Sequence record: PP916316.1
Length of the DNA: 64,000 nt
From: Pseudomonas phage vB_PaeM_HTN3
Reading direction: 5' to 3' (one strand)
Shown piece by piece: positions 55,812 through 56,716 of this stretch; position 1 is the stretch's first letter; each line of letters starts with the position of its first letter. The position numbers and the translations under genes are program-made. Under the pieces are notes generated by a model, which was not told where the DNA came from, did not search any database, and was given only the letters and a program-made list of their open reading frames with translations.

Positions 55812-55989
55812 GTGCGGAGAACATTAATTTAGTCGGCGAACAGGTGAGGTCTGAAAGCTATGTGGGAATTAGGGTGTTGTGGCGGCGGTGTATTGTGGGA
55901 ATTGATAGATTTTCGGTATTGGTCTGCTGTGTATGATTGTTGGATTTTGCGTGAAATGTTGAGAAATTGTGGGTTTGAGGCGGGTTTTT

Positions 55990-56330
55990 GTGTGGAAATA
56001 GCCGCAAATTCCTGGATTGCTATTCTGACTGGGAAGATGGGAGGCCTACTGCCGCGTGGGTTTGCGGCCAAATTCCCTAATTCCCGGTTTTCCGAGCATG
56101 GGTTAAAACTATTCTACAGCGAAAATCGATTGCACAATCCTAATAGAAAAAATCTATCACGGACGTTACCTATCTTTAAAATTAATAAAATTAATGGGAA
56201 TTTGGGAATTTGGAATAGTTTAGTCTTTGAAAGCCTCGCGGCGCTAAGCTTGTACATTACCCGGCAAGTTTCCGATTCCGCTCAACTCGCGGCAGGGTCG
56301 CCGGAAACTTCCGTCCTTCCAAACCATGGG
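55990..56330. repeat. second, diverged copy of the structured non-coding element seen at 9.85-10.33 kb
   Basis: Shares, in the same order, ggaaatagc(c/g)g, gcctactgccgc, aaattcc(c)taatt(t)cc, ctaatagaa, (gggaatttgg)x2 versus (ggtaaattggtaatttgg), gaaag(c/t)ct(c/t)gcggc..ta.gctt, and cc(g)gtcaa(a/g)tttccga. Confidence 0.6.
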
Positions 56331-56399
56331 CAGCGGCAACACCACGGCGGACTAAGCGGCAGGGACCAAAACTCGACGAGCGGAACCAGGAATTAAGCC

Positions 56400-56716
56400 A
56401 CAAGGCAGAATCGCTCACCTGGACACATTCCTAACATTCGATTTAACATTTTATCCAAACGCTCATCCGCCACCCACCAATCCGATCCTCACCCGCCAGC
56501 AGACCGCCCATATAACATCCTATAACACCACCTAACACTCATTCACCATCAAACCCACCCAGACCTACAGGCCACCCACAAGCAGCCCATAGACGCGCTC
56601 CCTGGCCCCATAGTACAATCGCGCCATACTCAGTGTCGCGGCAAAGCACCAGGTCCCAGCCACCTACCCAGCCACCGCGACGGTCCAAGAATCGAACTCC
56701 AGGGACGCAGCAACAA
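56400..56716 (+). other. CA-rich, G-depleted tract (about 10% G) forming the putative leader of the terminase-small-like gene
   Basis: Runs of cacccacc / cacaag / ccacc. No SD before the ATG at 56717. Confidence 0.5.

Follow-up and report, generated by a model that had tools for sequence, protein, structure and literature searches.

We examined a 64,000-nucleotide (nt) stretch of the genome of Pseudomonas phage vB_PaeM_HTN3 (PP916316.1; the whole stretch is called the window below), and within it the non-coding gap of 958 nt at positions 55759–56716, where an AT-rich core carrying a packaging-series DNA end lies between two arms of opposite strand composition. The window belongs to a Pbunavirus (PB1-like Pseudomonas phage): a blastn search with 55700–57300 returned 300 phage records, nearly all of them PB1-like, the best matches being zikora (99.8% identity) and F8 (99.4%). 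To the left of the gap is a VapE-like primase/helicase gene (54028–55758, + strand; Pfam PF05272, E 4e-22; PHROG 4630, "DNA primase"), whose intrinsic terminator at 55784–55810 (+) was found by scan, is annotated in PB1, KT28 and JG024, and is invariant in an alignment of 15 Pbunavirus genomes used throughout. To the right, the product of the gene at 56717–57295 (+) matches the E217 small terminase, known from a cryo-electron microscopy structure (phmmer against PDB 7UXE, E 3e-121); the gene that a first-pass annotation, made from the letters of the window alone, had called terminase-small-like is thus terS. An open reading frame (ORF) inside the gap at 55860–56396, which many Pbunavirus records annotate as encoding a hypothetical protein ("ORF75"; F8 ORF075, zikora JMN08_00088, PHROG 18478), was considered as a gene and rejected for want of a coding signature: its variable sites number 67/69/76 in the three codon phases, compared with 3/2/22 in terS and 24/16/41 in the helicase gene, and 1-nt and 8-nt indels in relatives frameshift it, shortening it to 69–123 codons. 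No protein is encoded in the 958-nt gap. An Rfam scan of 55000–58000 gave no meaningful match.

The base composition of the gap is strongly polarized. When GC skew was plotted over the 64 kb in 130–150-nt windows (mean 0.00, standard deviation 0.12), the maxima (+0.72 to +0.75) all fell at 55841–55881 and the minima (−0.71 to −0.75) all fell at 56411–56451, more than 6 standard deviations off the mean; likewise, the 12 highest C/G ratios among 78-nt windows on either strand (up to 36 C versus 5 G) were all inside these two blocks. The earlier impression that a GT-rich and a CA-rich block are the skew extremes of the window was confirmed by this sliding-window analysis. The + strand at 55860–55990 contains 16.8% A, 5.3% C, 38.2% G and 39.7% T. 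The figures first offered for the CA tract, about 45% C and about 10% G, describe its core at 56430–56600 (42.7% C, 9.4% G) but not the full 317 nt at 56400–56716 (40.1% C, 15.1% G). The left arm, G+T-rich and C-poor on the + strand, lies at 55815–56000 (36% G, 35% T, 8% C; skew +0.65), and the right arm, C+A-rich and G-poor on the + strand, at 56420–56650 (41% C, 13% G; skew −0.53); the skew extends into the flanking coding ends. The repeated tgtgggaatt-type motif previously noticed in the GT block is present, TGTGGGAATT occurring exactly twice (55861 and 55894), and 6 of the 13 copies of the GGGAATT core in the window (both strands) are clustered in 55864–56210 (Poisson P ~2e-10). The right arm has a motif of its own, TAACAY: out of 15 copies in the window, five are found there (56432, 56444, 56513, 56523 and 56533, +; P ~1e-10), showing no variation within the genus and a spacing of 10 nt between the last three. 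The cluster may be a protein-binding array upstream of the promoter P041 described below.

The AT-rich core (56086–56195, 31% G+C) is invariant, 93–95% of its alignment columns showing no change, and it holds a DNA end. For JG024, 36 of 161 nanopore reads longer than 30 kb begin at 59,376 ± 5, and an additional XbaI fragment of ~15 kb is compatible with a pac fragment starting from 59,376 (PMC10913387); by alignment, this coordinate is exactly window position 56127. The genome records of Ab27, Ab28, Pa193, E2005-C and vB3530 begin at window 56127–56129, and the first base of such records (Ab27/Ab28) was set from reads with fixed termination. Two independent published data sets, the JG024 reads and the Ab27/Ab28 record starts, therefore agree on base 56127, which puts the preferred end at 56126/56127 (AAAAT/CGATTGC), 590 nt upstream of terS. 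Packaging is rightwards, towards terS. Repeats flank the cut on both sides: two 18-nt arms of an inverted repeat, 94% complementary and 110 nt apart, bracket the core at 42 and 69 bp from the cut. The left one, CCAAATTCCCTAATTCCC at 56068–56085, belongs to a left repeat zone of AATTCC(C) motifs (56004–56085), and the right one, GGGAATTTGGGAATTTGG at 56196–56213, is the upstream half of promoter P040, a feature that runs through 56196–56230 (+). The repeat motif differs between clades, being GGGAATT or GGTAATT. A sigma-70 promoter scan of the core found no match on either strand. Zikora, 99.8% identical to the window, was classed as headful by PhageTerm, and circularly permuted, headful packaging is described in the literature for JG024 and Banzai also. 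For the whole region, the mapped end at 56126/56127 lends strong support to the fallback idea of the first-pass annotation, that of a packaging-related DNA signal near the small-terminase gene.

Conservation across the gap is uneven. Among 13 distinct Pbunaviruses pairwise identity was 60–73% (with indels) left of ~56105 and 90–100% right of it. The left arm comes in three very different sequence versions, and the skew was +0.44 to +0.70 in every one across the 15 genomes; right-arm skew was −0.50 to −0.59 in all 15. The core and the segment 56506–56645 are almost invariant, exceeding in this the synonymous sites of terS. Within the 5′ part of the right arm (56449–56505) the copy number of 12-nt and 39-nt C-rich tandem units varies, PB1 having 12 nt more than the window, and E217 and Epa13 one further copy of ~39 nt. 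Beyond the other end of the gap, the 3′ end of the helicase gene (55600–55700, to ~55770 in the alignment) has at least three divergent versions, distributed differently from those of the left arm, so that the region is a recombination mosaic; in Epa13 an insertion upstream of the terminator carries another copy of GGGAATTTGG.

The same architecture was found in other genera. A tblastn search with TerS detected relatives that are 32–42% identical and have no DNA similarity to the window (an IMG/VR search with TerS gave 6 near-identical loci only). In Serratia phages Hera and Spe5P4, Aeromonas phage Gekk3-15 and Escherichia Wifcevirus WFH, a primase/helicase gene is followed by a gap of 750–920 nt and then by terS, and the order of G+T-rich block, AT-rich core and C+A-rich block repeats in those four gaps. 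In Hera the first block has 39 G and 7 C per 100 nt, the core 28% G+C, and the last block 14 G and 42 C per 100 nt; over 50 kb of Hera, and likewise over 32 kb of Xanthomonas phage XcP1, skew reaches its extremes in the arms. Base 1 of the WFC record falls mid-way in a core of 14% G+C, and terS is found twice in that record, which would fit a terminal repeat. XcP1 likewise has the element after its primase/helicase gene, with seven small ORFs and 2.8 kb between it and terS, which argues that the CA arm is not simply a terS leader. No such element was present beside terS in Luteibacter phage Pluto. The recurrence beside core and helicase gene in these relatives ties the arms to the core and the helicase side, rather than to translation of terS; and because the layout is kept in distant relatives without shared sequence, the strand bias itself looks functional. 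Two further features were noted in XcP1, where the CA arm (~24950–25010) holds CCCCAGAACAA four times in tandem, and the positive-skew arm overlaps the 3′ end of the primase/helicase coding sequence.

Transcription of the gap could be placed using the ONT-cappable-seq data for phage 14-1, in which two sigma-70-type + strand starts lie in the gap, P040 at 59399 and P041 at 59807, and the transcription units TU045 (59399–60626) and TU046 (59807–60727) both include gp76, which is terS (bioRxiv 10.1101/2023.10.13.562163). Mapped onto the window, these starts correspond to ~56230 and 56626, the 50-nt P040 sequence of 14-1 aligning with the right inverted-repeat region; P041 itself (56590–56626, +) has TAGACG, an 18-nt spacer and TACAAT ahead of its start at 56626, was matched by scan, and is 100% invariant. 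The 14-1 start data list no minus-strand start in the gap; antisense read-through from P043 has its farthest end at 59828, window 56647, just within the CA arm. As P040 starts at ~56230, the CA tract lies inside a 487-nt terS leader, whereas P041, located within the tract, yields a 91-nt leader without most of it. The proposal that the CA tract is a transcribed 5′ leader of terS accordingly holds for P040, from which TU045 runs through terS, and is weakened by P041. The long leader begins with a G+C-rich part (56230–56420, +), formerly termed a structured element, for which a plausible consensus fold had −43.8 kcal/mol and a covariation test found only one compensatory pair. Its main predicted stem is made by the inverted GGAAT/GGAAA-type motif copies TTTCCGATTCC and GGAACCAGGAATT at 56270–56283 and 56378–56395; these copies could equally be DNA-level protein-binding sites. 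The CA tract that follows is G-poor and predicted to be unpaired. The short leader occupies 56627–56716 (+). Compared with shuffled sequences, neither leader had extra folding stability (z = 0.05 for the long, 0.32 for the short). The statement that no Shine-Dalgarno (SD) sequence precedes the ATG at 56717 needs qualification: an invariant SD-like AGGGA (56701–56705) lies 11 nt before the ATG, but it is distant and weak (anti-SD duplex of −4.8 kcal/mol, judged against a crude comparison set of ORFs contaminated by shadow ORFs). Downstream of terS there is a bidirectional terminator (57410–57444), ahead of a convergent gene at 57458–58072.

We consider, with moderate confidence, that the interval is pac, possibly pac plus an origin, combined with the control region for the terS promoters and provided with strand-polar arms, the right arm being in addition an unstructured leader. 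A headful packaging series would start in the AT-rich core, bracketed by the inverted GG(G/T)AATT repeats, and would leave the end at 56126/56127. The skewed blocks are mirror-symmetric about this end, such that on either side the strand running 5′ to 3′ towards the core is the G+T-rich, C-poor one, and the right arm, which includes P041, is also transcribed from P040 as a G-poor, unstructured mid-leader resembling a Rho-utilization (rut) site. Symmetry about a DNA end or opening suggests that the arms have a role at the level of DNA or single strands, and the reading of the region as a leader is weakened because no leader model covers the mirror GT arm. Hairpins and palindromes are impossible in a strand built only of G and T, and equally in its C/A complement. 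We infer that the arms belong to a pac or pac-plus-origin element and work on DNA, or on the single strands laid bare by cutting or opening of the core; that RNA–RNA pairing is not their mode of action; and that selection maintains their composition. More speculatively, and with rather low confidence, the arms could be a selected strand-polar cis element of a kind undescribed for phage packaging or replication sites, kept by composition alone in at least five genera. It would consist of 150–300 bp that are C-free on the strand ending 3′ at the site, the single strands of which could not fold and would be handled directionally by the helicase/primase, by recombination proteins or by terminase. 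Published work had already given the pac position, the promoters and the identity of TerS; descriptions of mirror-skew arms, or of their conservation across genera, were not found in limited literature searches.

Several points weigh against the interpretation as pac with strand-polar arms. One study saw no PhageTerm peak in a Pbunavirus, and an older report in the literature describes non-permuted ends. DNA ends and transcript starts were mapped in JG024, Ab27/28 and 14-1, genomes other than the one analysed here, though the core and P041 are invariant. The TerS of E217 showed no appreciable DNA binding in vitro (reviewed in PMC9611059). The left arm is poorly conserved and TerS is 96–100% conserved, a combination that counts against sequence-specific TerS sites in the left arm. 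The arms have no helical (10.5-bp) periodicity of the sort expected for DNA wrapping, the only periodic signal being one of 9 nt from tandem repeats of the core zone. Finally, P041 accounts only in part for the invariance of 56506–56645. Three of these points speak against wrapping of the arms around TerS, one of the specific mechanisms considered: the missing periodicity, the unconserved left arm, and the in vitro behaviour of E217 TerS.

The gap may be, or may also be, a replication origin, a possibility that we regard as tentative. The adjacent primase/helicase would open the AT core among iteron-like repeats, with the arms acting as hairpin-free loading strands; or a rolling-circle start would supply the free end for packaging. 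The element always lies directly downstream of the primase/helicase gene, even in XcP1 with its distant terS, and the AT-rich core is flanked by clustered, clade-variable short repeats, which is the structure of an iteron-type origin. The authors of the study on phage SCUT-S1 noted that the predicted pac falls within an AT-rich region, itself a possible origin; in ICP1, pac is within a 1.3-kb ORF-less gap beside a putative rolling-circle origin (PMC7145576). A further point in favour is that no DNA binding was detected for E217 TerS. On the other hand, the skew switch, plus and then minus, has the sign opposite to that of bidirectional origins; no global turning point of cumulative skew in the window coincides with the gap, and published skew minima of Pbunaviruses are located elsewhere. 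Nor did the C-terminal variants of the helicase co-vary with the repeat variants when the alignment was inspected by eye.

The first-pass annotation had favoured another role, with the CA tract as a G-poor leader for SD-independent, S1-dependent translation of terS, controlled by base-pairing between the tract and the GT block within a single RNA. We judge this unlikely. P040 does lie upstream of the tract, full-length TU045 includes terS, the tract is predicted to be unpaired, and the SD-like AGGGA is weak and 11 nt from the ATG. The pairing part of the proposal does not stand, however. The GT block is upstream of both mapped starts and downstream of the intrinsic terminator, and so is outside both transcripts; the complementarity of tgtggg and cccaca exists but is purely compositional, as the GT–CA duplex of −108 kcal/mol is no better than the mean of dinucleotide shuffles (−106.3; z = −0.26; z = −0.57 when the two were cofolded); and the GT block varies from genome to genome, in contrast to a CA tract that hardly changes. 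A long-range GU/CA RNA duplex was accordingly rejected. As for the translational part, transcripts from P041 lack most of the tract, Hera and WFH have a consensus-type promoter between their CA arm and terS, the arm of XcP1 is 2.8 kb from terS, and the mirror arm beyond the core is left unexplained.

It is comparably doubtful that the CA arm serves as a Rho-utilization site, attenuating the long untranslated P040 transcript and so keeping TerS low. The arm is rich enough in C, and poor enough in G, for this role, since the top C/G ratios of the window are here, and it provides at least ~80 nt of C-rich, G-poor, unstructured RNA that is transcribed and untranslated. The infectivity of E217 falls when TerS is overexpressed (PMC9611059), and attenuation would suit a protein needed in small amounts. 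Yet TU045 is listed without a premature 3′ end in the leader and full-length reads are present; there is no leftward start that could turn the mirror arm into a rut site; and the invariance of the 3′ part goes beyond the need of a compositional signal.

We thought it distinctly improbable that the arms protect or activate both DNA ends at the core, with 3′-ending strands that are G+T-rich, in the polarity of Chi and of the DNA preferred by RecA, and that they thereby tame RecBCD or favour strand invasion. Mirror symmetry about the DNA end would fit such a role. In Hera all four GCTGGTGG octamers of the 50 kb (2273, 3024, 3091 and 3369, minus strand) are within 1.3 kb of the core in the active orientation; Spe5P4 has four placed likewise (3029, 3193, 3302 and 3479), Gekk3-15 has two inside the CA arm, and most Pbunaviruses have GCTGGTGG on the minus strand at ~56493. 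Against this, the Chi reported for Pseudomonas (from P. syringae) is GCTGGCGC, and Pseudomonas lysates do not recognise E. coli Chi. The window has no copy of GCTGGCGC, compared with 3.4 expected, and a strand with 5% C can hardly contain it; no left arm has a perfect Chi; and Pbunaviruses encode a Mu-Gam-like end-binding protein, which would make Chi unnecessary. Some related observations are recorded here. The GCTGGTGG clusters of Hera, Spe5P4 and Gekk3-15 are on the terS side of the core and are oriented for RecBCD entering at the core. Downstream of terS in Hera (3060–3180), three copies of AAAAAATAAGCATGCTTTGTA are interleaved with C/A-rich stretches that bear Chi complements. The window has nine copies of GCTGGTGG (2.8 expected) with no strand bias. 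In the window and in PB1, GCTGGCGG is present at 56493–56500 on the minus strand and contains a 7-mer that P. syringae RecBCD recognises in part.

Least probable, and disfavoured, is a neutral origin of the skew through C→T and A→G deamination of strands that repeatedly become single-stranded beside the recurrent end: the polarity would fit 3′ tails left by 5′ to 3′ resection at the cut, the left arm retains composition and not sequence, and the skew spreads into the flanking coding ends, but young or minority left-arm variants weaken the skew (27 changes from G or T to A or C versus 12 in the reverse direction), the right arm hardly varies where its skew is strongest, the magnitude (5% C) is extreme, and it is not obvious how changes at the non-packaged left end would be inherited.

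The PB1-like group includes some of the Pseudomonas phages most widely used in therapy, and the initiation of packaging in these phages is still debated. With the packaging start, the repeats and the two terS promoters on a single map, there is a concrete element to target by mutation. Mirror skew is a signature independent of sequence that could locate packaging or replication starts in unannotated relatives, and it may indicate a step that depends on recognition of single strands instead of duplex DNA. Engineering insertions would be poorly placed in the gap, which is often wrongly annotated as a gene ("ORF75").

The element can be compared with several known systems. Like the CA-rich leaders that enhance translation, and like Rho rut sites, it provides a long C/A-rich, G-poor, unpaired and untranslated RNA before a gene with a weak SD; unlike them, it has a second promoter that bypasses most of the tract, a mirror arm on non-transcribed DNA, and a 3′ part conserved at the nucleotide level. 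It shares with Chi and KOPS around the chromosome terminus, and with the G/T-rich 3′ strand of telomeres, a G+T-rich strand that points 5′ to 3′ at the site from both sides, and true Chi octamers with this polarity are present in the enteric and Aeromonas relatives. The likeness to these is one of polarity only, as the window lacks the Pseudomonas Chi and the two arms have no defined repeated octamer in common.

Among packaging sites, SPP1 pac consists of pacL-pacC-pacR upstream of gene 1 (the TerS gene), the cut of P1 pac is flanked on either side by hexamer repeats, and lambda cos is organised as cosN-cosB-Nu1 (PMC9611059, in part). The window element is similar in having a defined first cut in a non-coding stretch just upstream of terS with short repeats on both sides, packaging towards terS, terminase-gene promoters within the element, and headful, circularly permuted packaging. 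It differs in being ~900 bp long, with two arms of 150–300 bp and opposite strand composition that are undescribed in those sites; its left side is unconserved in sequence, binding by TerS was undetected in vitro for E217, and terL is ~58 kb away. In ICP1 no mirror skew of the kind seen in the window region is reported, and that comparison is by description. ICP1 too is a lytic myovirus with a long ORF-less gap that contains the pac position, there located by PhageTerm, and its authors proposed a coupling of rolling-circle replication and headful packaging (PMC7145576).

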